Shown: positions 957 through 19,635 of the stretch, piece by piece
How the letters are laid out: every line of letters begins with the position of its first letter
How positions within the stretch are numbered: position 1 is the stretch's first letter
Source of the DNA: an uncultured Gammaproteobacteria bacterium
GTDB taxonomy: Bacteria > Pseudomonadota > Gammaproteobacteria > UBA9214
Reading direction: 5' to 3'
Assembly: GCA_963773065.1 (NCBI GenBank)
Contig: CAVYZN010000023.1
Span: forward strand, 93,041-125,040
Length of the DNA: 32,000 nucleotides
The notes under the pieces: generated by a model
Told to the model about the DNA's origin: nothing
Databases searched by the model: none
What the model saw: only the letters and a program-made list of their open reading frames with translations
Made by a program: the position numbers and the translations under genes

Positions 957-2391
957 CGGCAGCCCGTGTACGCGTGACGTTGAACGGCGGGCCGGCGAGC
1001 GGGGTCAAGGTCGCACTCGGACCCACCAGCGGGTTGTAGGCCGGATAGAACGGGTCATAGGTCCCGGCCGGGATCACATTCCAGAAGTTGGTCTTGTAGG
1101 TGCTGCCGTCATCGCGCACCCCGTTCAGGACCCCCGACAGGCCGAGGATCGGGTCGTTGGCGTTCGCCGCCGCCGAGTAGTACAGGCTCACGCCCGCCGG
1201 GTTCAGCGTCGGAGTGGTCCCTTTCTGCACCACCTGCGCCAGCAACACCTGGAACGGCGGCAGGATGCTCGCGATGCGGGTATCCAGGTCGCCGCAATGC
1301 ATGCCGAGGTCGTTGATGGCCAGCACGCTGTAGCTCGTGTTCGCCACCTGCGACTGCACCGGCACGACCGTGGTCACCGCGTTCACCGAGTTCTGGCTGG
1401 TGGAGTTGATGGAGGTGTTGGGCGCTCCGCCGTCGTTGTCGGTGATGGTGCCGACTCCCTGGGCGTCGGCGATAGTCGCGTTGCTCGGGTTCGACAGGTT
1501 GACGTTGAAGGTCTCGGTCGACTCCGCCGTGGTGTCGTTGATGGTGGTCACCGCGAAGGTCTGGGTCGTGGTGTTTGGCGCGAAGGTCAGCGTCACGTTG
1601 CTGCGGGCGGTGTAGTCGCCGGGAGCCACAGCGGTGCCGTTGGCGGTGCTGGCGGCGACCGTCACCGTCGAGGTGGAGGCCGCCGACAGGCTCACGGTAA
1701 AGTTGGCGGTGCCGCCCTCGGTCACGGTCACGTCGTTGATCGAGAGGCTGGTCTGGGCCGCGTCGTTGTCGTTGATGGTGCCCACGCCCTGGGCATCAGC
1801 GATAGTCGCGTTGCTCGGGTTCGACAGGTTGACGTTGAAGGTCTCGGTCAACTCCGCCGTGGTGTCGTTGATGGTCGTCACCGCGAAGGTCTGGGTCGTG
1901 GTGCTAACCGGGAAGCTCAGCGTCACATTGCTGCGGGCGGTGTAGTCGCCGGGAGCCACAGCGGTGCCGTTGGCGGTGCTGGCGGCGACCGTCACCGTCG
2001 TCGTGGACGCAGCAGAAAGGCTAACAGTGAAGTTGGCGGTGCTGCTCTCGGTCACGGTCACGTTATTGATCGAGAGGCTGGGCTGGGCCGTGTCGTTGTC
2101 GTTAATGGTGCCCACGCCCTGACTGTCGGCGATAGTCGCGTTGCTCGGGTTCGATAGGTTGACGTTGAAGGTCTCGGTCGATTCCGCCGTGGTGTCGTTG
2201 ATGGTCGTCACCGCGAAGGTCTGGGTCGTGGTGCCCGGGTTAAAGGTCAGCGTCACGTTGCTGCGGGCGGCGTAGTCGCCGGGAGCCACAGCGCTGCCGT
2301 TGGCGGTGCTAGCGGCGACAGTCACCGTCTGCGTGGAGGCGGCCGACAGGCTCACGGTAAAGTTGGCGGTGCCGCCCTCGGTCACGGTCAC
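922..2391 (-). CDS. Central fragment of the Calx-beta repeat protein: three near-identical 110-aa Calx-beta units, then a non-repetitive region.
   Basis: ORF track, 489 aa. Three consecutive units of the form VTVTEGGTANFTVSLSAAST.TVTVAASTANG.AVAPGDY.ARSNVTL.F...TTQTFAVTTINDTTAE.TETFNVNLSNPSNATIAD.QGVGTINDND, which is the classic Calx-beta pattern. Confidence 0.8.
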   Translation of the reverse strand: MTVTEGGTANFTVSLSAASTQTVTVAASTANGSAVAPGDYAARSNVTLTFNPGTTTQTFAVTTINDTTAESTETFNVNLSNPSNATIADSQGVGTINDNDTAQPSLSINNVTVTESSTANFTVSLSAASTTTVTVAASTANGTAVAPGDYTARSNVTLSFPVSTTTQTFAVTTINDTTAELTETFNVNLSNPSNATIADAQGVGTINDNDAAQTSLSINDVTVTEGGTANFTVSLSAASTSTVTVAASTANGTAVAPGDYTARSNVTLTFAPNTTTQTFAVTTINDTTAESTETFNVNLSNPSNATIADAQGVGTITDNDGGAPNTSINSTSQNSVNAVTTVVPVQSQVANTSYSVLAINDLGMHCGDLDTRIASILPPFQVLLAQVVQKGTTPTLNPAGVSLYYSAAANANDPILGLSGVLNGVRDDGSTYKTNFWNVIPAGTYDPFYPAYNPLVGPSATLTPLAGPPFNVTRTRAAGAEHGEVLHRQ

Positions 2392-2720
2392 GTTGTTGAT
2401 CGAGAGGCTGGGCTGCGCCGTGTCGTTGTCGTTGATGGTGCCGACACCTGAGCGTCGCTGATCGTGCCCTTGCTGGGGTTACTCAGGTTGACGTTGAAGG
2501 TCTCGGTAGTCTCCGGCGTCGTGTTCTGAATGGTACTGACCGAGATGGTTTGAGTGGTGACGCCATTATTGAATGTAAGGGTGCCGCTACTCGCCGTGTA
2601 GTCCGAACCGGACTGGGCAGTGCCGTTCGCGGTCGCATAGTTGATCGTCATACGCCCGTTAGTGCCGTTGGCGCGGGTCACCGTGAAGGTCGCGGTGCCC
2701 CCCTCGGTGACCGTCTGGTC
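1402..2720. repeat. Tandem coding repeat, period 330 bp (110 codons), four units: three near-identical and one diverged.
   Basis: The string gttgacgttgaaggtctcggtc...gtcaccgcgaaggtctgggtcgtggtg recurs at about 1498, 1828 and 2158, with a diverged copy at about 2487. The units correspond to the Calx-beta domains. Confidence 0.9.
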
Positions 2721-2825
2721 GTTGATGCTCCAGGTCGTAGCCTGGGCCGCGAGCGCGGAGCCCGCCAGGAGCATGAAGGCCGTGCACAACCGCCAGAACC
2801 GGGCGTGGTTTGAAGTATGAGTCAT
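2388..2825 (-). CDS. N-terminal fragment of the Calx-beta repeat protein: signal peptide plus a first, diverged Calx-beta unit.
   Basis: Likely start is ATG at 2825 (MTHTSNHARFWRLCTAFMLLAGSALAAQA|TTW: basic n-region, hydrophobic core, AQA cleavage-type site) with GGAGGA 8 nt upstream. The frame is lost near 2446..2450, where one base is missing relative to the paralogous repeat units. Confidence 0.75.
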   Translation of the reverse strand: MTHTSNHARFWRLCTAFMLLAGSALAAQATTWSINDQTVTEGGTATFTVTRANGTNGRMTINYATANGTAQSGSDYTASSGTLTFNNGVTTQTISVSTIQNTTPETTETFNVNLSNPSKGTISDAQVSAPSTTTTRRSPASRSTT

Positions 2826-3140
2826 CGTCGCTATCCTCCACCATGGTGTTGAGCTCAATTCCCAGCCCTCTTTAAGGAGACACCGGAACCGGAACGCTAA
2901 CAGAGTCGATTAAAAAATAGATAGCAAACGTCTTCTCGCCGCACGGTTGCGGTGGTTGCTGCTGATGTTGCCATCACGTGAACTAAAGATGATGTGGAAA
3001 GTTTTCAAATTATTTTGGGACATTTTACCCAATTATTACTATGAGTCAACAGTGCAAAGTCAAACTAAGCGGCCAGCTATGCACCCTCGTTGACCCGTTC
3101 GAGAACGCGAATACCGCAACCGCTAACGGCCTGTCACCCC

Positions 3141-5464: not shown

Positions 5465-5760
5465 TTCGACCTCCCGTGAAAGCAGGCCGGGTAGCTTAGC
5501 GATCCGGGACCGGAAAATCAATTTGTCCGGTGAAATGCTTGTTTGCGCAGGAACCTTCGCTCATGAATGAGCAGACCCCTCAATTGCCTCAGGAACCGTG
5601 CGGCCCGGCGGACCTTTCCCCCCCGGCAAGGAAACGCGACCCAGGGTGAGACGCTCAGGCAACACCGTTTCGTGAAAAATTCACGTAGCCGGGAAAAAGC
5701 CCGGTTATTGACTATGATTACGGTACAAAACCCAATGGACCCCGGTAAAGGAGGATCGCT

Positions 5761-6129
5761 ATGGCCAGGAAAGCGCTTTGCATCGGCATCAACAACTACC
5801 CCGGTACTCACATGGATCTGCAGGGCTGCGTCAACGACGCCCAGGATTGGGCCGCGGTTTTGCAGGCACGCGGCTACACGGTCACCACTCTGCTCGACAA
5901 ACACGCCACCAAGGCCGCGATGGTACAGGCGATGTCGGACCTGATCGGCGCGGCGGGCAACGGCGCTTTCACCTACTACGCACTGAAAACGCTCAAGGCG
6001 CTGAAGCCGGACGCCAGTTATGCGGACTGGAACAAGGCCATCGGCGCTTATCTGCCGTCCGCCAGTTACCCGCAGAGTCCGCAACTCGTGGGCAACAAGA
6101 CGGCGCGCGGGCAGAAGGTTTTTGGCTGA
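5761..6129 (+). CDS. Caspase-family (peptidase C14-like) mini-protein lacking the catalytic His/Cys core.
   Basis: 122 aa with a strong SD (AAGGAGGA, 6-nt spacer). The N-terminus KALCIGINNYPG...LQGCVNDAQDWAAVLQARGY matches the first strand/helix of metacaspase-type domains. The C-terminus NGAFTYYALKTLK...YADWNKAIGAYL...YPQSPQL matches the end of the fold. The SGHG and D.C.SG segments expected in between are absent. Confidence 0.6.
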   Translation: MARKALCIGINNYPGTHMDLQGCVNDAQDWAAVLQARGYTVTTLLDKHATKAAMVQAMSDLIGAAGNGAFTYYALKTLKALKPDASYADWNKAIGAYLPSASYPQSPQLVGNKTARGQKVFG

Positions 6130-6196
6130 CCAGTATCCAAGTAAGAAGTGAGAAGTAAAAAAGTAAGGTCCGGAGCCACCGCCCCGGCACCCGACC

Positions 6197-6424
6197 ATGA
6201 ACATCTTAGCCATCACACTTTGGCAGATGAATGAGAACCTCCCCGCTTTGAAACTGATGCGGGCTGCTGCCGAGGGCCGCACGCGCGTGCTGGGGTCGAA
6301 TCATCCCGATGCGGTCAACTCGCGGCAGATGTTTGCGCAGATGTCGGCAGCATTAAGTGGTAAACGAATAGGCTTTGTAGACAGGAAAAGAATCATCAGA
6401 GGGAACTTGCAAAGCACCAGGTAA
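6197..6424 (+). pseudogene. Fragment of a TPR (TPR_10/12-like) repeat protein.
   Basis: 75-aa ORF. ..LAITLWQMNENLPALKLMRAAAEGRTRVLGSNHPDAVNSRQMFAQM resembles the ..A..L.e.al..r.rvLG.eHPdT..s..nLA repeat. It is isolated by stop codons upstream and has no convincing SD. Confidence 0.4.
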
Positions 6425-6501: not shown

Positions 6502-9500
6502 ATGACCAGGACCTATAAGATACGCGGCACCGAACAACACGCGAGGACCGTTCCTCCCACCAGTCAGGACATCGCCATCACCAATCCGCGCCGGCTGGTC
6601 GCCCGGCTCCGCCCGCGAGGCCGGGGTGGGCGAGATCGAGGCGGCGGGCGACGAGGTGGTGCGGGTGGAACTGGAAAACGGCTTCGTGCTGTGGACCCGG
6701 GCCGACGACCTGATCCGGGAGCGGGGCCGGAAGGCGACGAGCCGCGACGGGGGCGAGGGTTGGGAGATCGAAAGCCGGCCAAAATTGCGGGGCATGCAGT
6801 CCGGCCAGCGGGGCTGGCTGGGGCTCGGTATCAAGGTGCTGGAGTTCTTCGGCGTGGACCTGACGGGCAAGACGGCCGGGGTACTGGGCGACAAGCTGGA
6901 GGAGAAACTGTTGAAGGGCAATTTCCCGGGTCTCTACCGCTGCGCCCTGGGGGATGCTTTTACCCTCACGGTTGTGCCCGACGGTGAGGAACTGCCAACT
7001 GGCAAGGAGCCGTTGCTGGTATTTATACACGGTACCGCTTCCAGCACCCAGGGCAGCTTCGGCAAGCTTTGGGAAGGAGGCGGCAGCGCCGGCGCCGCGG
7101 CGCGCAAGACACTCAAGGATCGCTACGGCGACCGGGTGTATGCCTGGGAGCACCGCTCCCTCACCGTCAGTCCCATCCAGAATGCCCTGGAGTTGGTGCG
7201 ACGCCTTCCCGCCAACGCCGTGGTCCATTTGGTGACTCATTCCCGGGGCGGGCTGGTGGGGGAACTGCTTTGTCTCGCCGAGCGGGACAAGTCCAAGGAC
7301 CCGTTCCAGTCGGATCTCCTGCAAAACCTGTTCGCCGCCGATCGCACCATCGCCGAGCAGATCGGCCTGAGCCCGCTGGATGAGGGCGCCGCCAAGACGC
7401 GCGACGATGCTTACGGCGAGGACCGGGAGCGGCTGAAAAAGCTGCTGGAATTGCTGGACGAAAAGCAGATTAAAATCCGACGCTTCGTGCGCGTGGCCTG
7501 TCCGGCCCGGGGCACCACCCTGGCCTCGGGCCGCCTGGACCGCTGGCTGTCGGTCATCAACCACCTCACCGGCAACAGCCTGGTGGGCGATGCCGCCGAC
7601 TTCCTGCTGGCGGTGGTGAAGGAGCGCACCGACCCGCGCACCCTGCCGGGGCTGGAGGCCATGATGCCCGGCTCGGCCCTCACCCGGATGCTACAGCACC
7701 CCGCCCTCACCACCGGCGCCGATCTGACGGTGATCGCCGGCGACGTCGAGGGCGACAACCTGTGGAGCCAGATCAAGCTGCTGGCCACCGACTGGTTCTA
7801 CGGCGCCGACCACGATCTGGTAGTGAACACCGGTTCCATGTATGGCGGCATCCGCCGACCGGAAAAGGGCGCCCGCTTCCTGCGGGACCAGGGTCCCAGC
7901 GTCAACCACTTCAGCTATTTCGAGAACGACAAGAGCGTGCGCTGGCTGATGGCGGGACTCACCCGGGCCGACGGAACCGACGGCGGCTTCCAGCCCATCG
8001 AAGCAGCGAAACACGAAGAACCCCGCTGGCGCGAGGCGGTGCGCCGCAGCCGTGCCGCGACCGCGCCGCGGCCCCTGGCCGTGGTGCTGCCGGGCACTCT
8101 GGGCAGCGCCCTGAAGGTGCAGGGCGAAAATGTGTGGCTCGACTACTGGTCCCTGTTGTGGGGCGGGCTCAAGCGGCTAAGCATGGATGCGACGGGGGTC
8201 GAGCCCACCGACCTGCTGGACGATTTTTACGGCCCCCTGCTGGAGTTCCTGGCACGCAGCCACCGCGTGGAGATCTTCCCCTACGATTGGCGGCTTTCGG
8301 TGGTCGATGCGGCGAAAAAACTGGCGGACCGCTTGGAAGTCTGGCTGCCGGCAGCCGAGCGCACTGACCAGTCCGTACACCTGGTGGCCCATTCCATGGG
8401 CGGGCTGGTGGTGCGCGCCATGATCGCGGACACGCAACGTGGAGCAGCGCTGTGGCGGCGCATCGTTGCCCTGCCCAACAGCCGATTCCTGATGCTGGGC
8501 ACGCCGAACCTGGGTTCCTACGAAGCGGTGCGCTGGCTGACCGGCGGCAACCCAACCCAGGCCAAGATCAGCCTGCTGGATATCACCCAGAGCACCAACG
8601 AGATCATCGATTTGGTGCGCAACTATCCGGGCCTGGTGGAACTGCTGCCCTTCGACCCCGACAGCCCCGACTTCAGCCAGCAGGGCCTCTGGAAGAAACT
8701 CAGGGACGCCTTGAACGCCTCATGGCAACCGGCCGAGGAAGCGGTGCTGCGCCAGGCGCTCGCTACCTGGACTCTCTTGAAACAGTCCGCCCCGGATCCC
8801 GAGCACATGATTTACGTGGCCGGCTGTCAGGATGCCACGGTGGCGGATTACCACCTGGCCGACTACGAACAACCCTCTCTCGCTGGACGTAAACGCCTCG
8901 AGTTCATCGGCGACCGGCAGGGCGACGGAACGGTGACCTGGAAGTCCGGCCGCCTGCCCGGCGTACCCGTCTGGTATGTGGAAGACACGGCCCATGACGA
9001 GCTGTGCAAGCAGAAACGCGCCCTGCCCGGCTACCTGGATCTGCTCATGACCGGCAAGACCACGCGCCTGCCCGGCACCCCGCCGGCCGGGGCGAGAGCG
9101 GCGGCGGGCGAGCCGGATCGCTTCCCCATGCCGGCCCTGCCGCACACCGACGACATCCCGGATGAGCGCAGCGTGCGCAGCTTCAGCTTCGGTCCCGGGC
9201 GGCCCTTAGAGACCGATGACGACCGGCCGGTGGTGCCGGTCATCCAGGTCGGCATCTGTCACGGCGACCTGGCCTACGCCCATCATCCGGTGCTGGTGGG
9301 GCATTACCTGGGTGACACCGTCATCAGCGCCGAGTCCGCCCTGGACCACCGGCTTGGCGGGGCGCTGACACGGCGCCTGCAGCTCGGGCTCTACCCGGGG
9401 CAGACGGGAACCCATGCCCTGTTCTTCAATGAAAAGACGGACGGCAAACCCGGGGGCGCGGTCGTGATCGGGCTGGGCCAGGTGGGCGAACTCTCTCCCG

Positions 9501-12022
9501 GTCTGCTCGAGGCCGGCGTGCGCAACGCGCTGATGGACTACGCCCTGCAGGTGGCTCAATGGCCGGACGAACGCTTCGGTCCGGCCAAGGGCGTGCGATC
9601 GGCCGCCGTATCCTGTCTGCTGGTGGGCTCCGGCCCGGGCGGCATGGCGGTGCGTGATTCCGTCGATGCCATCCTCCGGGGCGCGGTGGCGGCCAATGAC
9701 CGGCTGGAGCAGGCTGATCTGAATGACCGGGTGCTCATCGACCGCGTCGAGTTTCTGGAGCTGTTCGAGGACGTGGCCCTCGCCGCGGCCGATGCAATGG
9801 ATTCGATCTTGAAGGACGGGAAACTGGCCAATGCCATCGCCTGGCCGGCGAAAGTCATCGAGGAAGGACAGGGCCGGCTCCGCCGGGTACGCTGCGACGA
9901 TACACCGGGCTGGTGGCACCGGCTGGAGATCATCGAGGAGAAAGGCCGGGGCGGCCTGCGCTTCATCGCCTCCACCGATCGCGCCCGGGCCGAGGTCACC
10001 CAGGCCACCGGCCAGCTTCGATTGGCGGACAGCTTTATCCACCAGGCCTCCCAGTCTCCCGCCAGCAATGCCGAAGTGGCCAAGACCCTGTTCGAGATGC
10101 TCCTGCCCAACCGGCTGAAGGAATTGGCCCCCAGACAGACGGACCTGGTGCTGCTGGTGGACGCAGCCTCGGCGCGCTACCCCTGGGAATTGCTGGAAGA
10201 CCGCTGGAGCCAGACCGGCCGGCCGGCCGCTGTTTCCGCCGGCCTGGTGCGCCAGCTCAAGACGCCCCGGTTCCGTCCCCATCCGGCCCATGCCACCGAG
10301 GCCACCGCCTTCGTCGTGGGCAATCCGGATCTGGGCGGCTGGGATTCCTTCCCCGACCTGCCCGGCGCAAGGCAGGAGGCGCAAAACGTCGCCAGCCGGC
10401 TTATGGCCGGAGGTTATCGGGTGAGGGACTGCATTGATGAAAAGGCCGACGTCATCCTGGAAGTTCTGCACAAGGACGCCTGGCGCATCCTGCACCTGGC
10501 GGGCCACGGCGAGCACGAGATGGTGCTGGAGGAGGAAGATGAAGCCCGAGAGGTGTGCGCGGACGATGAGCGGCCCGTTCCGAAACGCAAGCAGTGCCTC
10601 TCGGGCATGGTCATCGGCAGCAAGACTTTCCTCACCCCGGGCGATGTGGAGCAGATGCGCTGGGTGCCGGAGCTGGTGTTCATCAACTGCTGCCACCTGG
10701 GCAAGACCGGCGCCTCCCGACACGGCAAATACAGCCTGCTGGCGGCGAACCTGGGAGTGCAGTTCATCAACATGGGAGTCAAGGCAGTGGTGGCCGCCGG
10801 CTGGGCGGTGGACGACGGGGCGGCGAGCGCCTTCGCGGAGAGTTTCTACGCCCACCTGCTGGACGGCGAGCTTTTCGGCAAGGCGGTGCGTGCCGCCCGG
10901 GAGGAGATCTGGACCCGCTTCCCCAACGTCAACACCTGGGGCGCCTACCAGTGCTACGGGGATCCCGGCTACCGGCTTCGCGGCGACGGCGCTGCCCCAC
11001 CGCCTCCCAGCGGCAAGCGCTACCACTCCCCGGCCGAATTGATCGCCGATCTGGAAAACCACACCCAAGTGATCCGCGTGAAGATCAAGAACAAGGAGAA
11101 GGACGGGGACGAGGATGCCCTCGCCAAGATGCGCGCCGGCATCGTCGGCCTGTTCGGTGCCATACCGGAAGAGCGGCAGGCGAAATGGCTCGCCCGCGCC
11201 GACGTGGCGGCGGCAGTGGGCTTCGCCTGGGGCGAGACCGGCGCCTGGGCCGAGGCCGTGGAATGGCTGGAGAAGGCACTGCATGCCAAGGAGGGCGATT
11301 GCCCGGTGCGGGCGGTGGAACAGTGCGCCAACTTCAGGGTACGGCTGTCCGCGCAGAAGTGGCAGCAGATGCGTGATGCGGTTGATCGCAAACAGGCCGA
11401 GGCAGGTCGCTCTGCGCTGATCCGGGAAATCGAACTCGCCATCCGGGAACTGGACTACCTCAACCAGCGGGCGCCGACCCAGGAACGATTGGACCTGCTG
11501 GGCGGCGCCTGCAAGCGGCTGGCCTGGGTTCACACCGAAGAGGCGCCGCGCCTCGAAGCTCTGGTCAACATGGCCAACTACTATCGCCAAGCCTTCGATC
11601 ATGACGACAAAGCCAGATCCCTATCCCTTCACCAACTGGGCCATCGCCAAGGTGTTCGCCAATCGGTTCGATCCCACCCAGGATGGCGAGTGGCGGATCA
11701 CTCTGGAAGACGAATGCCGGCGCATGATCGACGTGGCCCGGAGCCGCAACGCCGAGAAACCCAATTTCTGGGACGGGGCGGCCGAGGCCGACTGCGAACT
11801 GGTGATGTTGCTATGCTGGCAAATCGCGACACCACGACGAAGGCAGCCAACGAAGCCGTGACCCGCATTGCCGAACTTTACCGAGCCGCGGCACGGCGCG
11901 GCGCCAGTCCCAGGGAATACGCCTCGGTGCTGGAGCACCTGGACTTCGTCATCGAGGTGGGCGGCTTCACGGCCGGCTCTCCATTGAACGAAGCTCTGCG
12001 CGCCATCCGCGATGCGCTCTGA
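6502..12022 (+). CDS. Giant multidomain protein (about 1840 aa): alpha/beta hydrolase 1 + LCAT/PGAP1-like lipase + middle (possibly macro-like) region + CHAT caspase-fold protease + helical/TPR-like tail. The continuous ORF as read is 6626..12022.
   Basis: ORF track, 1798 aa. Hydrolase 1: LLVFIHGTASS, VTHSRGG (Ser 7241..7243), DHDLVVNTGSM. Lipase 2: PYDWRLS (8279..), VAHSMGG (Ser 8393..8395), GDGTV (Asp 8924..8926), DTAHDEL. CHAT: PDLPGARQEAQ, ILHLAGHGEH (His 10505..10507), LVFINCCHLG (Cys 10688..10693), AVVAAGWAVDD..A..F...FY, TWGAYQCYGDPGY. The likely true start is ATG 6502 (AAGGAG 9 nt upstream, MTRTYKIRG...), joined by a frameshift within about 6575..6625. A compensating frameshift pair at about 11605..11615 and 11805..11820 puts about 70 codons out of frame; the real reading is ..DDKPDPYPFTNWAIAKVFANRFDPTQDGEWRITLEDECRRMIDVARSRNAEKPNFWDGAAEADCELVMLL.. 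from ORF 11601..11861. Confidence 0.85.
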
Positions 12023-12047
12023 GCCGCCAGGAACCAAGGAGACCGCC

Positions 12048-12605
12048 ATGGCCAACCGTTCGAAAACCCGGCTGGAAAACCTCAGTCTCGAAGACCTCGA
12101 CCCGCAGGATCTCATCGCCGCGAACTTCCGTGTCTATGAACTCACCCGTTCCGAACTCGCCAGCCGGCTGGGCATAGACAACACCTTCCCGAGCGACCGG
12201 GAACTGCGCGCCGCCGTGTACCTGGCCCGCAAGGTGCTGCAGGTGATTCGCGATACCTTCGGCCCCTATACCCCAAACAGCGTGTTCCGCAGCCAAGCCC
12301 TGGAGCGCGCGCTGAAGAAAAAGCCCGGCGGGTGGATCAGCACCAGCCAGCACACCCAGGGCTGCGCCTGTGACGTGGAGATCGTCGGCAAGACCACCCT
12401 GGAACTGGCTCAATGGGCGGCGGACAACCTGCCCGACTACGACCAGATCATCTGCGAGTGCTTCGACCCGAGCGAAGGCCCCAACTCCGGTTGGGTGCAT
12501 ATCTCCCTCAAGCCCCCCGAATTGGGGGTAAACCGCAGGACCCTCTTGAGCTACATCCGTGATCCCGAAAATGGAACTCATCGCCGCGAACTTCCGTGTC
12601 TATGA
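12048..12605 (+). CDS. Peptidase M15 family zinc metallopeptidase (D-Ala-D-Ala carboxypeptidase / endolysin-like), copy 1.
   Basis: ATG 12048 has AAGGAGA 6 nt upstream and lies 26 nt after the stop of the giant gene. Motifs: F.V.EL..S..A.RLGIDN.P, VFRS, H-x6-D (SQHTQGCACD, 12351..12374), GWVHIS. No signal peptide. The C-terminus is replaced by out-of-frame readthrough into copy 2. Confidence 0.8.
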   Translation: MANRSKTRLENLSLEDLDPQDLIAANFRVYELTRSELASRLGIDNTFPSDRELRAAVYLARKVLQVIRDTFGPYTPNSVFRSQALERALKKKPGGWISTSQHTQGCACDVEIVGKTTLELAQWAADNLPDYDQIICECFDPSEGPNSGWVHISLKPPELGVNRRTLLSYIRDPENGTHRRELPCL

Positions 12606-13042
12606 ACTCACCCGCTCCGAACTCGCCAGCCGGCTGGGCATAGACAATTCCTTTCCCAGCGAGCGGGAGCTGCGCGCCGCCGTGTACCTGGCGCGCAAGG
12701 TGCTGCAGGTGATTCGCAAGGAATTCGGTTCCTTCTCACCCAACAGCGTGTTCCGCAGCCAGGCTCTGGAACGCGCGCTGAAGAAAAAGCCCGCCGGCTG
12801 GATCAGCACCAGCCAACACACCCAGGGCTGTGCCTGCGACCTGGAACTCGTCGGCAAGACCACCCTGGAACTGGCCCAGTGGGCGGCGGACAACCTGCCC
12901 GACTACGACCAGATCATCTGCGAGTGCTTCGACCCGAGAGAAGGTCCCAACTCCGGTTGGGTGCACATCTCCTTCAAGCCCCCCGAATTGGGGGTAAACC
13001 GCAGGACCCTCCTGAGCTACATCCGTGATCCCGGAAGCGAAC
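12111..13042. repeat. Direct tandem duplication, 2 x 466 bp (12111..12576 and 12577..13042), covering most of the M15 peptidase gene.
   Basis: ctcatcgccgcgaacttccgtgtctatgaactcacccg starts at both 12111 and 12577. The copies align end to end with scattered substitutions; most positions are identical by eye. Confidence 0.9.
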
Positions 13043-13083
13043 AGATGGTTTATGTCGAGGGGTTGCGGGAAAGCGTGGCGTGA
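12571..13083 (+). CDS. Peptidase M15 family zinc metallopeptidase, copy 2 (tandem paralogue).
   Basis: Same motifs as copy 1 (His at 12817..12819). Start is ATG 12571, or GTG 12559 as in the ORF track. It has the full-length C-terminus ..SYIRDPGSEQMVYVEGLRESVA. Confidence 0.8.
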   Translation: MELIAANFRVYELTRSELASRLGIDNSFPSERELRAAVYLARKVLQVIRKEFGSFSPNSVFRSQALERALKKKPAGWISTSQHTQGCACDLELVGKTTLELAQWAADNLPDYDQIICECFDPREGPNSGWVHISFKPPELGVNRRTLLSYIRDPGSEQMVYVEGLRESVA

Positions 13084-13170
13084 CAATTGGCATGATGTCG
13101 AAGTGACTGTGCGCGACACCGGTGAGATCAGCGCGAGTGGAAAATACTTCCGGCATCGCACCGGTTACTG

Positions 13171-13349
13171 AGAGCCTGTGAAAATATCGCCAGCCTGCGT
13201 CGGACGCCGCTTTGCGGCTGCGGCGGCGTTGCGCCACGCGAAAACTTCGGTCATTTGGCTCGCCAAACTCCCTTGTTTTCGCGCAGCGCGCCTTGCCTCG
13301 CACGCAAATCGACGCCCTCGCGACGACCGTCGATATTTTCACAGGCTCT
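13171..13349. repeat. 179-bp palindromic element with perfect 19-bp terminal inverted repeats (MITE-like or a large hairpin).
   Basis: agagcctgtgaaaatatcg at 13171..13189 is the exact reverse complement of cgatattttcacaggctct at 13331..13349. There is an inner inverted pair, cgcgaaaac / gttttcgcg. The element lies in a non-coding, lower-GC gap. Confidence 0.8.
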
Positions 13350-13386
13350 GAATCCATACATCATCCACTGCAAGGAGGAGATGGCC

Positions 13387-13518
13387 ATGAATAAATGCGT
13401 TGTGTTGCTACGCAACGCTTGGTGGATTACGCAAGAATACGCTAACCCCCTACCCGCCCTGATTTGTATTCCTCCCTCAATGACAGACAGAACGCTTACC
13501 TTGACGGATATCCGCTGA
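13387..13518 (+). CDS. Possible 43-aa small ORF (MNKCVVLLRNAWWITQEYANPLPALICIPPSMTDRTLTLTDIR).
   Basis: A strong SD (AAGGAGG) lies about 8 nt upstream of ATG 13387. No homology recognised. It may be fortuitous. Confidence 0.2.
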   Translation: MNKCVVLLRNAWWITQEYANPLPALICIPPSMTDRTLTLTDIR

Positions 13519-13754
13519 TCCCGTTCAGCGGCATGCGCCATGGCGGCGTGTGCCACAGTTGAAGTAACCGGTGACAGAACGTCTGAAAAAAATTCAAGAC
13601 CCTGCGCTCCTGCCTCCTGCATGCGGTGAAATTTATACCCGGCCTTCAACGGAAGCGATTGGGCGAAATCCTGACTGCTCCATCGAATACCGGGGTTTCT
13701 TTCGCCAGCCCGGTTATCTGCGATATGCTCCTTTCTCTTGAGAACACGGGCCAC

Positions 13755-16464
13755 ATGACCACCATCTACCTCTCTTCGTCCTACGAAGACCTGAAGGACT
13801 ACCGCCGGGTCGTGTTCGAGGCCCTGCGACGGTCCGGGTATAACGTCATCGCGATGGAGGAGTACGTCGCCCGTGACGACCGCCCCGTGTACGCCTGCCT
13901 TCAGGACGTCGATCACGCCGACATCTATGTGGGGCTGTTTGCCTTCCGCTATGGCTACATCCCGCCCGCCGCACACGGCAATCCCAACGGCCTGTCCATC
14001 ACCGAACTGGAGTTCCGGCGCGCCGATCGCTGCGCCTGCCAAGAAATGCCTGACGTTTCTGCTCGATGAAAAGACCCCCTGGTCGAGCCTATACAACGAC
14101 GCCTATACACGTGAGAACGAACGCGGTGAGCGAATCAAGAAGTTGAGGGATTACCTGCGGCAGGAAAAGATGGCAAGCTTCTTCAGCACACCCCACGAAC
14201 TGGCCAGCCTGGTGCAAGCCGCCGTCAGCCAACATCTCCAGTCCGGCCGGGAAGAATCCCCGGCGTCCGAAACCCGTTCCGAACCGATCACCTGGCACGT
14301 CGCCAAAGACGACTCGCCCTATCCGGGGCTCATGCACTTCACGCGACAGTTCGCCCGGGTGTTCTTCGGCCGCGAGGGGGAGGCGCGGGAACTGCTCGAC
14401 CGGATGACCCTGCCCGATGGCCGCTTCCTCATCGTGAGCGGCGACTCCGGCACCGGCAAGTCCTCGCTGGTGGATGCGGGCGTGTTACCCCGGCTGGAGG
14501 AATCCGGACTCCCCGGATACCCGACACTCACTACGGTACGCCTGGTCCCGGGCGAAGGAGAGAACCCCTTCGACGCCCTGCTCCGGGTCCTTAGCCCTTA
14601 CGCACAACGGGCGGGTTTGAACTCGTATCTGCTTGGCACCGAGGAGCTGGTCGCCCACCCCGAGAATTTGCCGGCAACGCTTGCGACGATCGTCGCGCGT
14701 GGCATGGACACAAAGGCCTTGGTGCTGTTTGTCGACCAGATGGAAGAGCTGTTCACGGTCAAGGAAGAGGAAAAAGCGCTGGCGGCCGCCTTTCTCTCGG
14801 GGCTTTACCAGGCCATCCAGACAAGCGCCTTGTGGGTCATCGCCACCATCCGCACCGACCTGCTGCACCACTGCTACAACCACCCGGACCTGCTCAAGGT
14901 CCTGCGCGGTCCGGGGCATTATCCGCTCGGTCCGATGGCGCTCCACCGGTTGCATGAGATCATCGTGCGGCCCGCTCGCTGCGCCGGCCTGGCAGTTCCC
15001 GGTCCTCTGGCGGGACGTCTGATCAAGGACGTCGGCACGGAAGCGGGCAATCTGCCGTTGCTGGCCTTCGTGCTGCGGCGGTTGTTCGACAGACGCCAGG
15101 ATAATGTGCTCAGTGAAGCAGTCTACGATGACCTCGGCGTCCTCAATGGCGCCATCGCCGATCACGCTGCTTCGGTGCAACGCGAACTCGCCGCCACCCT
15201 TGGACAAGAAGTCCTGGAACGGCGTCTTGCCGAAATCTTCGAGGCTCTGGTCCACGCGGATGTGGAGGGCCTGCCCACCCGGCGCAGCGTCCCTTCGCAG
15301 GAGTTTTCCGACCACATGCATACCGTCATCGATGCCCTGGTGAAGGGACAGCTTCTGACCGTGCAGGGTGGGCGCGATAAGGGCACCGTCACCGTGGCTC
15401 ACGAACGCCTGTTCAATGCCTGGCCGGCGCTTGCCCATTGGGTCGCCGAACTCCAGGACGAGCTGCGCCTGCTGCGCCAGGGTGAACTCGATGCCGCGGA
15501 GTGGCAGCGTCATAACGCAGACCTCGGCTATCTTTGGCACACCGACCGCCTGATGCGCTTGCAGACGGTGGTAAGCGGCCTGGCAGCCAACCGGGCAAGC
15601 CGGCAGCTACGCGACTTCGCCTGGCCGCAACAACGTCTGGTGAACCGCCTGAACGAACCGGAACTTACCCATGAGGTACGCCAGAGCATCGGCCGCTACC
15701 TGGCCGAGCAGGGCGATCCACGGCCGGGGACCGGTGTGACCGCCGACGGTATCCCGGACATCGACTGGGTAGACATACCCGACGGTCGCGTGGTGTTGGA
15801 GAAAAATGTCGGCGCGGGCATGGTCGAACCTTTCCGCATGGCGCGTTATCCCATCACCAATGCCCAGTTCGAAGCCTTCGTGTCCGCCGCAGATGGTTAT
15901 CGTAACCGGGAATGGTGGACAGGATCGCCGGAGGCCGCCAGCGATGGCCTGGAAACGCCGCGCTGGCCCGAACCCAACCATCCGCGCGTGTCTGTATCCT
16001 GGTACAAGGCGGCGGCCTTTTGCCGCTGGCTGTCCCGGCGGCTCGGCTTCGAGGTCTGGCTGCCCACCGAATTCGAGTGGCAGCAGGCGGCCACCGGCGG
16101 TGACCCGACCAACGTCTATCCCTGGGGCCCCGAATGGGATGCGCGCTACTGCAACAGTACGAAGAGCAGGCTGAACCGAACCACGGCGGTGGGCATGTAT
16201 CCCGCGGGCGCCAGCCACCAGGGCGTGCTGGATCTGGCCGGCAACGTGTGGGAATGGTGCAAGAATAAATACGACAATCCCGATGACCCAAAGGCGTTGC
16301 GCGTCGATGATTCCGGAGATTCGCGCGTGTTGCGCGGCGGGTCCTGGGCCGGCGGTCCGGTCGACCTGCGTTGCGCCGACCGCTTCAGGTTCTTTCCCGA
16401 CGACCGCTTCGTCGACATCGGGTTTCGTGTGGTGTGCCGCCCCCGCTCTTCCACGGGACGCTGA
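13755..16464 (+). CDS. DUF4062-like (TIR-like Rossmann) N-terminal domain + STAND-type P-loop ATPase (nSTAND-like) + C-terminal FGE-sulfatase-fold domain. One frameshift near 14020..14030.
   Basis: ORFs 13626..14069 and 13873..16464 join as ..GLSITELEFRRA / IAAPAKKCLTFLLDEKTPW... The N-terminus MTTIYLSSSYEDLKDYRRVVFEAL..GYNVIAME.......CLQDVDHADIYVGLFAFRYGYIP fits DUF4062. Walker A is GDSGTGKSSLVDAGVLPRL (14440..), Walker B is LVLFVDQMEELF (14719..14748). FGE fold: FRMARYPITNAQFEAF, LPTEFEWQQAA, LAGNVWEWC, RVLRGGSW, DIGFRVV. Confidence 0.85.
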
Positions 16465-16492
16465 CGGGAATGGCACTTACATCGGGTTACCT

Positions 16493-16652
16493 CAACCTGC
16501 TATTTTGACGGAGCCGCGGAATGCGCACCCGGCGCGCAAGAGTACAATCATCGCGGGGATACCCATGAACACCTACGAACCACACCCAATCGACACCTCC
16601 GGCATCCGGCTACCCGAGGATCTCCTGGAACTCACCGAAGAACTTGCCCGCA
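16493..16652. repeat. Direct repeat copy A (about 160 bp): RyR-gene leader plus the first ~29 codons.
   Basis: Aligns by eye with 18000..18160 (one 1-nt indel, scattered substitutions): caacctgYtattttga..gagccgcggaatgcRcacccggc..ggggatacccatgaacacctacgaacc.cacccRatcgacacctccggc.tccggctacc. Confidence 0.85.
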
Positions 16653-16681
16653 ACCGTATACTCCCTCCGGGCGCCGCGTGA
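16565..16681 (+). pseudogene. Truncated RyR-domain gene copy. The 38-aa ORF has a stop that overlaps the start of the TIR gene.
   Basis: MNTYEPHPIDTSGIRLPEDLLELTEELARN matches the first 30 residues of the 18073..18360 product, then diverges and stops. TGA 16679..16681 overlaps ATG 16681..16683. Confidence 0.5.
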
Positions 16682-17937
16682 TGTCCGCTGAAACAGCCTC
16701 CACGAAGAACGACAGCCGGCACGTTTTCATCAGCTTCGCATCGGCGGATCTCGAACTGGCCAATCGGATCGTCGAAAGGCTGGAGCGCGGCGGGATCCGC
16801 TGCTGGATCGCGCACAGGGACATCGAACCCGCCGCGAGCTATCCAGCCGCCATCACGGCCGCCATGACTTCAAGCGCAGCCGTCCTGCTGCTCCTGACTG
16901 AATCGTCCAACAGTTCGCCTCATGTGCTGCGCGAAATCGAGATGGCGTTCAACGCCCGCACACCCATCCTGCCGGTGTGCATGGCGGGCCTCACGCCTTC
17001 GGCCGATTTGCAGTATTTCCTTTCGACGACGCAATGGTTCGATGCCGGCGCGACCTTCGACGAGGGTGACGCAAAACGGCTGCAGGACCGTCTGAAAGAA
17101 CTGCTCGCAGGCGGCACGGTTCACCGCGGCAGACGGGATATTCCAGGCCGATTCGGACGACGGGCCTTCATCGCGGGAGTGCTGGCGCTGTCGGCCGTGG
17201 CTGTTATCGTCTTATCCTTCGTCGTTCCATGGGGATTTCATCCGTCGCGGGAGTCCATCCAAACGAAAGTCAGCTCGCGGGACGGCCAGACGTACGTGTG
17301 GGTCCAAGCCGGTGATTACGTGATGGGATGCTCGTCAGGAGATCCTGCATGCGAAGAAGATGAGAAGCCTGCGCATAGGGTCCGCATCAAACAGGGCTTC
17401 TGGCTTGCCCGCACGGAGGTAACGGAGGCGCAGTACCGTAAGCATGCACCGGCAGGGAGCGGTGATCGCCAGGAGGCGGACGCCAATATGCCGGCAACAG
17501 AGATTACCTGGGCGGATGCGAATGTCTATTGCACGGCGATCGGTGGCCGGCTGCCAACGGAAGCCGAGTGGGAATACGCGGCACGCGCGGGCACCACGAC
17601 CCGCTACTACGGCGCGCTCGGGTCTATCGCGTGGTACGAGGACAACAGTAACCAACGCGCGCATCCTGTGGGGCAGAAGCAGCCCAATGCGTTCGGCCTC
17701 TACGACATGCTGGGCAACGTGGCGGAGTGGGTTCGAGACCGCTATTACAACTCGTACGACGATAGCGGCGATGAAGTCGCGATCGAGGAGCCGCTGGCAC
17801 CGAACGCCTCGGCTATCGCGCGCGGCGGTTCATGGTTCTCGGATGCGCGCGGTGTCCGAGTATCGCGGCGGCTCGATATGATCCCGGAGGCGGCAGAGGC
17901 GATAATCGGCTTTCGTTGCGCATACGACAAGCTATGA
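16681..17937 (+). CDS. TIR domain + single transmembrane helix + FGE-sulfatase-fold domain protein.
   Basis: ORF track, 419 aa (GTG 16678 / ATG 16681). TIR_2-like: HVFISFASADLELA..I...LE..GIRCWIAHRDI, AVLLLLTESSNSSPHVLREIEMA (Glu 16933..16935). TM helix AFIAGVLALSAVAVIVLSFVVPW (17164..17232), preceded by the Arg-rich HRGRRDIPGRFGRR. FGE fold: HRVRIKQGFWLARTEVTEAQY, LPTEAEWEYAARAG, LGNVAEWV, ARGGSW, IIGFRCA. Confidence 0.85.
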   Translation: MSAETASTKNDSRHVFISFASADLELANRIVERLERGGIRCWIAHRDIEPAASYPAAITAAMTSSAAVLLLLTESSNSSPHVLREIEMAFNARTPILPVCMAGLTPSADLQYFLSTTQWFDAGATFDEGDAKRLQDRLKELLAGGTVHRGRRDIPGRFGRRAFIAGVLALSAVAVIVLSFVVPWGFHPSRESIQTKVSSRDGQTYVWVQAGDYVMGCSSGDPACEEDEKPAHRVRIKQGFWLARTEVTEAQYRKHAPAGSGDRQEADANMPATEITWADANVYCTAIGGRLPTEAEWEYAARAGTTTRYYGALGSIAWYEDNSNQRAHPVGQKQPNAFGLYDMLGNVAEWVRDRYYNSYDDSGDEVAIEEPLAPNASAIARGGSWFSDARGVRVSRRLDMIPEAAEAIIGFRCAYDKL

Positions 17938-17999
17938 CCGGGCCAGGCTCAGTGAGAGTGGTGGGCGATGCTCACCCTACGTGCTACCCCCTGCTCCCG

Positions 18000-18160
18000 C
18001 AACCTGTTATTTTGAGCGAGCCGCGGAATGCACACCCGGCGGCGCAAGGGCACAACCATGGCGGGGATACCCATGAACACCTACGAACCTCACCCGATCG
18101 ACACCTCCGGCGTCCGGCTACCGGAGGGCCTCATGGAACTCACCGAAGAACTCGCGCGCA
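18000..18160. repeat. Direct repeat copy B (about 161 bp): leader and 5' end of the intact RyR-domain gene.
   Basis: See copy A (16493..16652). Confidence 0.85.
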
Positions 18161-18360
18161 GCACGCACGATCACTGGGCGAGACAGCGCATCGGGGAGGG
18201 ATGGAGCTGGGGTCCCGCGCGCGATGACGCCGCCAAACGGCACCCCGACCTCGTGCCCTATGCCGAGCTTTCGGAAGCGGAGAAGCAGTACGACCGCACG
18301 ACCGCCATGGAAACGCTGAAGGCGATCATCGCCCTGGGATACCGGATCGAGCGCGATTAG
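18073..18360 (+). CDS. Small RyR (ryanodine-receptor repeat) domain protein, about 95 aa.
   Basis: LPEGLMELTEELARSTHDHWARQRIGEGWSWGPARDDAAKRHPDLVPYAELSEAEKQYDRTTAMETLKAIIALGYRI matches the bacterial RyR-domain pattern (..lAe..Hd.Wa..r...GW.yG...d...k.hP.lvpy.eLse.eK..dr......l......Gy.i). ATG 18073 is favoured by conservation with the truncated copy. ORF-track starts at 18028 or 18058 are possible. Confidence 0.8.
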   Translation: MNTYEPHPIDTSGVRLPEGLMELTEELARSTHDHWARQRIGEGWSWGPARDDAAKRHPDLVPYAELSEAEKQYDRTTAMETLKAIIALGYRIERD

Positions 18361-18414
18361 CGCCGCAAAGGGCTGCGCCCCACGGACTCCCGAAACGGGG
18401 GAAAGCACAACGGG

Positions 18415-19635
18415 TCAATCCTCGATGTCCCTGGCAAGACGAAAACCAATGTAGCTGTACCCGGCACCGGGGGAGTCCCTGAGCCGGGACGCGGAACGCA
18501 GGCCCACCGCCAGGAGGTACCAGGAACCACCGCGCACCACGCGCTGGCCGCAATCTCCGCCGCCGCCCTCCAACCAGGCGGAACCGTCATCGGGCGCGCC
18601 ATCGTAGTTATCATGCACGCAGTCCTGCACCCACTCCCACACATTGCCCGCCGTGTCGTAAAGACCAAACGCGTTCGCCTCGAATGACCCTACCGGCGCC
18701 GTGTACTTCCCTTCGGCCTTGCCCTGCCACTCACTCTCACAATCCTCGCAGTTGGCCATCCCCGGCTTCATCTCCTCACCCCACCAGTACCGCGTCGAAG
18801 TCCCCGCCCGCGCGGCATACTCCCACTCGGCTTCGGTCGGGAGCCGATACGGCTTACCCGTCTGTTGCGACAGCCATTCGGCATAGGCTACCGCATCAAC
18901 CCAGGAGACATTGATCACCGGCCGACGGTCACGACCCCAGCCACCATCGGCCGGCAGCGCATGCCCCGTTGAGGCCGCAAACTGGTCGTATTCCTCGAAG
19001 GTCACTTCGTATCGCCCAATCGCAAACGGCCTGGTGAAAGTAACCCGGTGCTGGGGACGCTCATCCGGATCCCGGCCATATTCATCGCCTGGCGAACCCA
19101 TCATGAAAGAACCCGGCGGAATTTCCACCATCTCGGGACCCTTCGAACCATCAAGCAATGTGTCGCGAATCACAGCCGGCAATGACACGTTGGCTACGTT
19201 TACGTTTTCGCTTGGTTCTTTGCTGATTTCAGTCGGCCGATGGGGTTGACCGACAATCTCGGCGATATCCTTCCTCAGGTTCCGATAAGAATCCTGGTTA
19301 ACGGTGCCATCCCAATCGAACAATTCAAGCGTTTGCAACTCTTCGAACCGAAAGGGAAGATCGACCGCCTCAATCTTGACCGGAACCAGTTTATTGTGAT
19401 TCAGAGCGTAATACGCCTCGTCCTTCACATAAGTCGACTGGACCGAACGTTGCGACCACAGGACGATGACGCAGCGGGATGCCTTCATTGCCTGCTCGAT
19501 CACATCATCGAAGTGTTCGCCCGCGTGGAGCTTCGGGTCCCACCAGACACTCCAGCCCTCGCGTTCCAGCGCATCCGCCAGGCATCTGGCGACGTGCTGT
19601 TCCTCCCGTTTGTAGCTGATAAAAATATCCGTCAT
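18415..19635 (-). CDS. TIR domain + FGE-sulfatase-fold domain protein (soluble, no TM helix).
   Basis: ORF track, 406 aa. TIR_2-like: DIFISYKREEQHVARCLADALEREGWSVWWD, CVIVLWSQRSVQSTYVKDEAYYA (Glu 19417..19419). FGE fold: HRVTFTRPFAIGRYEVTFEEY, INVSWVDAVAYAEWL, YRLPTEAEWEYAARAG, AGNVWEWVQD, VVRGGSW, YIGFRLA. Confidence 0.85.
   Translation of the reverse strand: MTDIFISYKREEQHVARCLADALEREGWSVWWDPKLHAGEHFDDVIEQAMKASRCVIVLWSQRSVQSTYVKDEAYYALNHNKLVPVKIEAVDLPFRFEELQTLELFDWDGTVNQDSYRNLRKDIAEIVGQPHRPTEISKEPSENVNVANVSLPAVIRDTLLDGSKGPEMVEIPPGSFMMGSPGDEYGRDPDERPQHRVTFTRPFAIGRYEVTFEEYDQFAASTGHALPADGGWGRDRRPVINVSWVDAVAYAEWLSQQTGKPYRLPTEAEWEYAARAGTSTRYWWGEEMKPGMANCEDCESEWQGKAEGKYTAPVGSFEANAFGLYDTAGNVWEWVQDCVHDNYDGAPDDGSAWLEGGGGDCGQRVVRGGSWYLLAVGLRSASRLRDSPGAGYSYIGFRLARDIED

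Follow-up and report, generated by a model that had tools for sequence, protein, structure and literature searches.

Candidate immune receptors with FGE-fold domains and an adjoining RyR-domain protein in a variable island of an uncultured gammaproteobacterium

We analyzed a 32,000-nt stretch of DNA (hereafter, the window) from an uncultured Gammaproteobacteria bacterium of the lineage UBA9214 (GenBank assembly GCA_963773065.1, contig CAVYZN010000023.1, positions 93,041 to 125,040 of the forward strand), in which three genes between positions 13755 and 19635 (genes 1, 2 and 3) each join a DUF4062 or TIR domain to a C-terminal FGE fold, and a small gene among them encodes a 95-aa RyR-domain protein. 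The reading that we prefer, and hold to be somewhat probable from the sequence, is that genes 1, 2 and 3 are independent receptor modules, each combining a NAD+-cleaving domain with a variable FGE sensor, and that the RyR protein serves as a host buffer or off-switch. The receptor architectures have already been predicted in the literature and are not new. What this analysis adds is the linkage between RyR and TIR genes on the host side, which is the most novel part of the locus, the hypervariation of gene 3 between strains, which is of the type generated by diversity-generating retroelements (DGRs), and the predicted Toll-like topology of gene 2 together with its apparent cassette behavior. 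Domains were called with Pfam profiles, named defense systems with PADLOC-DB v2 and equivalogs with NCBIfam at the family cut-offs, and transmembrane (TM) segments were called by mean Kyte-Doolittle hydropathy.

Domain architecture of the three receptors

The three genes have the following features.

13755..16464, forward strand: gene 1, DUF4062 (NIR, TIR-like NADase), nSTAND1 and FGE/C-type-lectin fold; about 902 aa after frame repair
14004..14006, forward strand: Glu84 of gene 1, aligned equivalent of the DUF4062 NADase catalytic Glu (KpSwz E97)
14028, forward strand: extra C, by which gene 1 is frameshifted and DUF4062 cut off from nSTAND1-FGE; located by comparing both frames with intact homologues
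14440..14466, forward strand: Walker A motif GDSGTGKSS of the gene 1 nSTAND1, translation checked; Lys codon at 14458..14460
14719..14748, forward strand: Walker B motif LVLFVDQMEE of the gene 1 nSTAND1, translation checked
16681..17937 (or from 16678), forward strand: gene 2, TIR_2 (Pfam, 2.4e-21), TM helix and FGE fold (7.5e-46)
16933..16935, forward strand: catalytic Glu86 of gene 2, translation checked
17170..17226, forward strand: TM helix of gene 2, residues 164-182, mean Kyte-Doolittle hydropathy 2.82
18415..19635, reverse strand: gene 3, soluble TIR_2 (Pfam, 1.8e-23) and PvdO-like FGE fold (2.4e-64)
19417..19419, reverse strand: catalytic Glu73 of gene 3, translation checked

A first-pass annotation, made from the letters of this DNA alone, had named TIR, FGE, DUF4062, STAND ATPase and RyR domains here, and all of them were significant in Pfam at the positions proposed. 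The motifs that it quoted and the codons that it offered for mutation (14458..14460, 16933..16935 and 19417..19419) translate as it had described; one TM helix in gene 2 and no TM segment in gene 3 were borne out by hydropathy; and the frame correction that it had called for in gene 1 comes down to the single extra C at 14028. Its proposal that the TIR and DUF4062 modules are NAD-directed outputs is consistent with a catalytic TIR Glu that is invariant in 21 aligned family members, with the Glu kept in gene 1 and with the NADase activity described for DUF4062 in recent preprints.

After frame correction, gene 1 matched DUF4062 (4e-21), nSTAND1 (6.9e-89, residues 188-589) and FGE-sulfatase (1.2e-43), and by this domain content it is an NLR/Avs-like tripartite receptor in which the nSTAND1 ATPase would act as the switch. 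Glu84 was found by aligning gene 1 to KpSwz chain 10wc and human TEP1 chain 11gz, and the NIR structure of TEP1 matches the DUF4062 of gene 1 at 6e-8. DUF4062 is a TIR-like NADase with a catalytic Glu and acts in phage defense (bioRxiv 10.64898/2026.09.04.749371; 10.64898/2026.05.01.722283), and a third 2026 preprint describes Evangelion, an anti-phage defense family with DUF4062. The gene 1 family is uniform, with hundreds of DUF4062-nSTAND1-FGE members of 880-950 aa, of which the best intact relative is 62% identical. The extra C follows GAT (Asp91) directly, seven codons past the catalytic-Glu motif SITE84LEF, and the sole gene 1 product annotated in the public source assembly is 764 aa long, without DUF4062.

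Systems that join an effector, a STAND ATPase and an FGS domain have been predicted, nSTAND1 has been defined and the FGS lectin fold has been read as an invader sensor by Kaur, Iyer, Burroughs and Aravind (eLife 2021, PMC8195603), a work to which the first-pass annotation had rightly pointed and that also mentions several paralogous FGS receptors per genome and a DGR link. Gene 1 resembles these NTPase-FGS systems in its N-terminal NAD-processing effector, its nSTAND1 with Walker A and B motifs and its C-terminal FGS (PF03781). However, its effector is DUF4062, which we did not find named in that paper; genes 2 and 3 have no NTPase; the window has neither effector-associated adaptor domains nor a DGR; and RyR is absent from the published account. 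With the Avs/NLR-like STAND proteins that carry an NIR effector (PsAvs2; Swarozyc), gene 1 shares the effector-STAND-sensor logic and the retained DUF4062 catalytic Glu, whereas its sensor is an FGE fold rather than TPR-like repeats, its ATPase is of the nSTAND1 type, its frame is interrupted and no PADLOC model matched it significantly, the two marginal matches (mad8 and LmuB) being to the P-loop only.

An Arg-rich stretch, read from the translation, precedes the TM helix of gene 2, and the topology is therefore predicted to place the TIR domain in the cytoplasm and the FGE fold in the periplasm. Gene 2 would thus have the topology of a Toll-like receptor, its binding domain lying outside the cytoplasm, its TIR domain inside and a single TM helix between them. 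The likeness to the animal proteins is one of topology only: the predicted ectodomain of gene 2 is a lectin/FGE fold instead of leucine-rich repeats, its TIR keeps the enzymatic Glu, and no shared ancestry of the whole proteins is implied. The gene is flanked by the following elements.

16490..16652, forward strand: direct repeat copy A, the RyR upstream region and RyR codons 1-29; 89% identical to copy B
17997..18160, forward strand: direct repeat copy B, compared with copy A; covers the beginning of the intact RyR gene and what lies upstream of it
16565..16681, forward strand: RyR remnant, an open reading frame (ORF) of 38 codons matching Pfam RyR model positions 1-27 (6e-5)

Gene 2 is thus bracketed by a 163-nt direct repeat, of which the truncated RyR copy that the first-pass annotation had placed ahead of the gene forms a part. 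The TGA of the remnant overlaps the ATG of gene 2 (GTGATG), so that the remnant could act as a leader ORF. A 97% identical strain, L253, retains the order gene 1, RyR remnant, gene 2 and RyR, with the remnant ORF retained as well. In the related strain L089 (L089:1-1013, compared with window 16065..18584), the end of gene 1 is followed by a single repeat copy, the intact RyR gene and gene 3, without gene 2; this pattern suggests that gene 2 is a cassette, gained or lost between the 163-nt repeats and apparently variable between strains, although L089 is a 1-kb metagenomic contig whose arrangement could be an assembly collapse across the repeat. As a separate observation, the differences from L253 are concentrated in two places, the linker between TIR and TM helix in gene 2 (15 in 100 nt, 17114..17213) and the RyR remnant with repeat copy A (21 in 200 nt, 16514..16713).

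Gene 3, which is read as entirely cytoplasmic, is one of a very large family of TIR-FGE proteins: among its 120 best relatives, 107 consist of TIR followed by FGE. A TM linker like that of gene 2 is present in 38 of these 107, and the membrane and soluble topologies are therefore regular variants of one family. TIR domains with the catalytic Glu are also found in Thoeris, to which the TIR domains here show weak profile matches (ThsB, 1.7e-5 at best, and ThcB4), and a family able to bind Thoeris signals, RyR, is encoded next door. However, there is no ThsA-type effector (SIR2-SLOG, Macro-TM etc.) among the window ORFs tested, the TIR is fused to its own sensor, and the best TIR profile matches are the effector-type TIRs of CBASS (SAVED-TIR) and short Argonaute systems. 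All PADLOC matches of the TIR genes were at the level of the TIR domain only (SAVED-TIR, Argonaute-TIR, ThsB and PDC-S66).

Sensor folds and DGR-type variability

FGE is a listed sensor class of defense-associated STAND proteins (2026 survey), and the first-pass annotation had likewise taken the FGE folds of the window for sensors. In alignments to the Streptomyces FGE, gene 3 has lost the Cys pair that follows RGGS and gene 2 has other residues in its place, and by reading of the sequence gene 1 has no Cys-pair motif. Among solved structures, the FGE fold of gene 1 comes closest to ToxD, that of gene 2 to TvpA, a DGR variable protein (4e-22), and that of gene 3 to PvdO (3.6e-53). By these comparisons the FGE folds look like binding sensors rather than enzymes, as proposed. 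That they are enzymes, as the name ‘SUMF1/EgtB/PvdO family nonheme iron enzyme’ suggests, we consider barely credible: there are significant matches to the FGE, EgtB, OvoA and PvdO profiles, but NCBIfam scores fall well short of the family cut-offs throughout, with no equivalog above its own; the EgtB-type DinB iron domain is absent, in addition to the loss of the Cys pair in genes 2 and 3; and the closest relatives include non-enzymatic DGR variable proteins. The same name and ‘formylglycine-generating enzyme required for sulfatase activity’ are attached in databases to relatives of genes 1 and 3, and are misleading, since these proteins have TIR or STAND modules and are without the catalytic residues.

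DGRs diversify the C-terminal C-type-lectin/FGE domains of nSTAND1, NACHT, TIR and CHAT proteins at template adenines (Dore et al., PNAS 2024, PMC10907252). In two of the window genes, the equivalent segments are as follows.

18448..18519, reverse strand: hypervariable segment of gene 3, codons 373-396, from RGGSW to IGFR; equivalent of a DGR variable region
16348..16419, forward strand: equivalent of a DGR variable region in gene 1, from after RGGSW to before IGFR, aligned to the template repeat and variable regions of L258

Between gene 3 and its counterpart in L089, 24 of the 72 nt in the segment differ, compared with 3 of 66 in the flanks. Eighteen of these 24 differences fall at adenines of the homologous DGR template of locus L002 (Fisher p = 3e-5), and when codons are counted against the same template, 14 of the 15 that contain adenine vary between the strains, compared with 2 of the 9 others. 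L002 encodes a full-length TIR-FGE protein, 46% identical to gene 3, in which all 16 mismatches between variable region and template repeat lie at template adenines, and this gene is a true DGR target. There, one DGR (L002:1953-10258, with bAvd, reverse transcriptase and a template at 5632-5755) serves three targets that end in FGE, namely a 728-aa protein with a TM segment, the 384-aa soluble TIR-FGE protein and a 642-aa protein, and the mismatches of all three are at template adenines.

The closest intact relative of gene 1 likewise lies in a textbook DGR locus (L258), in the order target, bAvd, reverse transcriptase, template repeat and second target. Compared with the L258 template repeat, the gene 1 segment differs at 24 of 31 adenine positions and at 10 of 41 other positions (p = 1e-5). 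The window thus resembles the DGR-diversified sensors of PMC10907252 in that homologues of gene 1 and gene 3 are DGR targets, and we infer that the last 24 or so codons before IGFR are probably a DGR-type variable patch in all three receptors. The hypervariable patch of gene 3 lends support to the view that, in bacteria, NAD+ effectors of innate type are paired with receptors that diversify.

Searches of the window with the conserved boundaries of the variable regions matched only the three FGE genes themselves. A 61-nt inverted repeat (17548-17608 and 18786-18846) was considered as a DGR pair and rejected, since its two arms are the stretches of genes 2 and 3 that encode LPTEAEWEYAARAG, which are homologous and lie on opposite strands. 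The 54-nt spacer between the RyR gene and gene 3, folded in search of a DGR-type hairpin, gave none (z = -0.74).

The RyR protein and its linkage to TIR genes

18073..18360, forward strand: 95-aa RyR-domain protein, complete domain (Pfam RyR, 7.4e-36)

The domain of this protein had been named rightly in the first-pass annotation and left uninterpreted. RyR1 repeats and the bacterial protein 3NRT match it at 3e-30 or better, and it belongs to a bacterial family of 95-aa proteins that are 65-94% identical across several phyla. The RyR proteins of phages termed RyDEP cleave the ribose-ribose bond of 2′cADPR and 3′cADPR, the cyclic ADP-ribose (cADPR) isomers that serve as TIR/Thoeris messengers, or sequester these molecules; H75 and D117 form a His/Asp dyad, and W78 and H100 hold the ligand (PMC13232231, a preprint of May 2026 that covers viral members only). 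In an alignment with RyDEP and its tested homologues, His32, Trp35, His57 and Asp74 of the window protein share columns with H75, W78, H100 and D117. The four columns are invariant in this alignment, and so are the residues among 25 proteins of the bacterial family. We infer from the alignment that the RyR protein binds, and may cleave, ribose-linked cADPR isomers or ADP-ribose (ADPR) released by the adjacent TIR/NIR domains.

Like RyDEP, the window protein belongs to PF02026 and matches the His/Trp/His/Asp columns, at 33% identity. Unlike RyDEP, it is encoded by the host within a TIR island, it has no counterpart of the N-terminal extension of about 40 aa of the phage proteins, and the role proposed for it is self-regulation instead of evasion; it also lies closer to the canonical RyR repeat of animals and to 3NRT, a Bacteroides protein of 103 aa.

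We surveyed the neighborhoods of the 95-aa family in 76 non-redundant metagenomic loci. The immediate neighbors (n = 123) included TIR_2 (11), TPR-S (9), SLATT_1 (7) and a second RyR-domain protein (9). With a local TIR profile, a TIR gene was found within three genes of RyR in 18 of the 76 loci, compared with 0 of 50 among farther ORFs. Certain gene orders recur, among them RyR, SLATT, TIR-TPR (L116, L124 and L134), patatin, RyR, TIR (L254:4794-7878) and RyR, NUDIX, TIR-AAA_16 (L164). These three-gene sets of RyR and TIR with SLATT, patatin or NUDIX, whose third partner is of a membrane, lipase or ADPR-hydrolase type, resemble an unnamed Thoeris-like signaling system. Large RelA_SpoT-TPR-SLOG-RyR fusions lie directly upstream of a stand-alone RyR gene in four loci (L085:4998-7946, L112:3120-5792, L156:2091-4799 and L160:388-3570), in the first of which a TIR-TPR gene lies downstream of the pair; in these fusions RyR is joined to an effector of the alarmone-synthetase type. 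Further recurring arrangements are a hydrolase-TPR-S-TIR gene next to RyR, DUF4062 proteins flanking RyR and a RyR-TIR fusion. In the RyDEP paper and the other literature searched, we found no report of a host-side association between RyR and TIR.

The main alternative to a damping role is that RyR is a receptor subunit, which reads the TIR nucleotide and activates an effector, in place of the SLOG or SAVED domains of Thoeris and CBASS. Such a role fits the SLATT and patatin operons found elsewhere, where a small RyR gene lies directly beside the effector with a TIR gene adjoining and no other recognized sensor, and it fits the effector types that carry RyR in fusion (RelA_SpoT-TPR-SLOG-RyR, AAA/nSTAND5-RyR and RyR-TIR). 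For the window we nevertheless think it unlikely, since no effector partner (SLATT, patatin, RelA-SpoT or another) is encoded there; moreover, a separate small RyR is encoded even beside effectors that have a RyR of their own, which better fits a signal-clearing paralogue, and the sole tested members of the family degrade or sequester the signal.

The RyR gene might also be an anti-defense gene left by a phage or mobile element and unrelated to its TIR neighbors. The characterized members of the family are indeed phage anti-Thoeris proteins, and homologues with 50-60% identity are found on viral contigs (L169-L176, match near 6001) beside PRPP synthetase (ribose-phosphate pyrophosphokinase) and NAMPT, NAD-salvage genes whose presence fits the anti-defense context of RyDEP. 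However, the window gene lies between two TIR genes in a chromosomal island set among housekeeping genes and containing no phage genes, and the proximity of RyR and TIR recurs across phyla, on non-viral contigs including one chromosome-scale (5.7-Mb) record and in apparent operons. We therefore regard a viral leftover as very improbable.

The reading of RyR as a damper has a parallel in the ring nucleases of type III CRISPR systems (Crn1-3, and the viral AcrIII-1), where one family is used by hosts and viruses alike. As in that case, RyR is a small stand-alone signal-binding domain beside a signal generator and is proposed to remove the messenger; the analogy does not extend to the RyR fold or the messenger, both of which are unrelated.

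A broader, joint reading, which we put forward tentatively as possible, is that the 95-aa RyR proteins of hosts are native readers or erasers of cADPR-type messengers made by TIR domains within a widespread, unnamed immune class, that phage RyDEP is a stolen host copy, and that TIR-TM-FGE proteins are DGR-hypermutated counterparts of Toll-like receptors. If this is true, the class would consist of a TIR-sensor and RyR, with or without SLATT, patatin, NUDIX or RelA-SpoT-SLOG-RyR effectors, and TIR-TM-FGE would be a receptor at the cell surface that couples an adaptive-like repertoire to NAD+ signaling. FGE/lectin-sensor receptors number in the thousands in the family alignments and database searches made here, and the locus offers STAND-gated, membrane-spanning and soluble versions side by side with clear catalytic residues. 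As a lead, the link to RyR on the host side is worth more, and it suggests a bacterial regulator or receptor for TIR-made ADPR-type nucleotides. It may explain the origin of the phage anti-Thoeris RyDEP, and it would tie the ryanodine-receptor domain of animals to nucleotide immunity from the host side too.

Independent modules in a variable island

The first-pass annotation had joined the genes into one multi-receptor defense locus, and this part of its interpretation was not supported, whereas the NAD-directed outputs and the FGE sensors were. When the conservation of the neighborhood was examined, as that annotation had advised, the surroundings of gene 1 and gene 3 homologues differed from the window and did not repeat the set. 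Relatives of gene 1 lie in DGR cassettes; of those of gene 3, one (L249) has as neighbors an IS110 transposase, a second TIR gene and a CHAT-TPR-S gene, another (L251) lies amid several FGE genes, and a third (L252) stands alone. A profile search of genome contigs found a RyR gene in 0 of 80 loci with a gene-3-like FGE domain, although this search was keyed on the FGE motif, matched FGE only in 76 of the 80 and is thus a poor test of linkage between TIR-FGE and RyR. The gene set is not a conserved system; the receptors are self-standing units in a variable island.

A single integrated system, in which the three receptors, the STAND ATPase and RyR depend on one another, nonetheless has some features in its favor. 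The genes are tightly clustered and share the FGE fold, the RyR remnant is translationally coupled to gene 2, and the gene order is kept in the 97% identical strain. On the other hand, genes 1 and 3 have homologues that stand alone or beside different partners, one metagenome carries close relatives of the two on separate contigs, gene 2 appears dispensable in L089, and every protein is already both sensor and effector. Adding the RyR count given above, we judge interdependence to be quite improbable. Since each receptor already joins a sensor to an effector, the cluster is read as independent modules in a defense-type island.

In the preferred reading of independent modules with RyR as a damper, a foreign ligand would bind the variable FGE surface and drive oligomerization, which STAND and TIR biology suggests would be ATP-dependent in gene 1 and would take the form of clustering in genes 2 and 3. 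The TIR or NIR active sites would thereby be joined, and NAD+ would be hydrolyzed or turned into ADPR-type nucleotides, as the conserved Glu and the tested relatives suggest. The infected cell would then stop growing or die, while RyR, by analogy with ring nucleases, would bind or cleave ADPR-type nucleotides and so damp or reset the response.

Several results weigh against this reading. With regard to the sensors, the 32-kb window contains no DGR reverse transcriptase, bAvd or template repeat, unlike the loci of known DGR-diversified sensors, so that any active DGR must be elsewhere in the genome. The diversification of gene 3 is derived from one strain pair and a heterologous template. The variable segment of gene 1 is nearly static in three strains (1 difference from L253 and 0 from L089), and the equivalent region of gene 2 is not variable against L253, the differences being clustered elsewhere. 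With regard to the effectors, gene 1 is frameshifted as sequenced and may be inactive, or its extra base may be an error of assembly, and the window encodes no separate effector (SLATT, patatin, SIR2 etc.), which bears on whether a TIR signal is read or NAD+ is simply depleted. With regard to RyR, the enzymatic and sponge homologues of RyDEP share all four residues, which makes cleavage indistinguishable from binding by sequence; about three quarters of the RyR loci have no TIR gene nearby, though many of these contigs are short; and no RyR gene lies in the neighborhoods of the TIR-FGE homologues L249, L251 and L252. Finally, the PADLOC-DB v2 profiles, a check that the first-pass annotation had suggested, called no named defense system, and we know of no experiment on any FGE-sensor immune protein or any host RyR protein.

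The receptors, and especially the periplasm-facing gene 2, might instead serve self/non-self or environmental sensing, such as recognizing kin or responding to other bacteria, rather than act against phages. In the literature, FGS and DGR-diversified sensors are associated with bacteria that are multicellular or aggregate, a lectin-fold domain in the periplasm is favorably situated for extracellular ligands, and no phage phenotype is known. However, the catalytic residues of TIR and DUF4062 point to NAD+ destruction, the typical output of abortive infection, the neighbors are typical of conflict systems (CHAT, TPR-S and, in L249, IS110), and phages carry a RyR counter-measure; we thus attach a small probability to this alternative.

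The setting of the genes bears on whether they are functional. One flank holds a block of housekeeping genes (dapB, carA, carB, rlmE, ftsH, folP and glmM), and the other holds tpiA, secG and tRNA-Leu. With conserved housekeeping genes on both flanks, the region from 13.7 to 19.7 kb is the right half of a variable island of about 14 kb inserted between tpiA and glmM. No phage genes were found in the island. Its left half consists of a 1798-aa protein, followed by two M15 peptidase paralogues.

6626..12022, forward strand: DUF7379/LCAT alpha/beta-hydrolase, CHAT protease and TPR-S (Pfam; context only)
12012..12605 and 12559..13083, forward strand: two tandem Peptidase_M15_3 paralogues (Pfam; context only)

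In the CHAT gene, the homology to a CHAT-TPR-S relative changes frame near 11594..11616 (blastx; ORF 11601..11861), which implies one or two frameshifts within the TPR-S part. Two or three frame disruptions are thus present in the island, compared with none in about 18 kb of flanking housekeeping genes, and their confinement to the island points either to real decay or to local assembly errors. In the former case, the island would be a decaying and largely non-functional relic of recombination, with gene 1 and the CHAT gene as pseudogenes and the RyR remnant as debris. The frameshift at 14028, the frame switch in the CHAT gene and the truncated copies of RyR and M15 are in keeping with decay, as are the undisturbed frames of the flanks. 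However, genes 2 and 3 and the RyR gene have intact frames and key residues, the gene 3 patch has recently diversified while its flanks are conserved, which is not the pattern of random decay, a second strain has kept the RyR remnant ORF, and single-base indels may be assembly errors. Decay of the whole island therefore seems to us unlikely, though worth keeping in view.

Some further observations concern the remainder of the island and its borders. Scanned for promoters and terminators, the stretch 13-19.9 kb yielded no promoter-like site and no more terminator-like sites than expected by chance. The spacer ahead of gene 1 (13084..13754, 670 nt) holds no recognized gene and has a GC content of 55%, compared with 63% for the island. 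The M15 paralogues share a 300-nt repeat that is 89% identical, the first copy being truncated, and the first M15 gene starts 11 nt ahead of the CHAT gene stop, which suggests that the two are co-translated. Adjoining tpiA, a 254-aa ORF on the reverse strand (5518..6282) is Arg-rich, matches no family and looks spurious. Outside the island, past secG and tRNA-Leu, the reverse strand encodes Calx-beta repeat proteins (922..2858).

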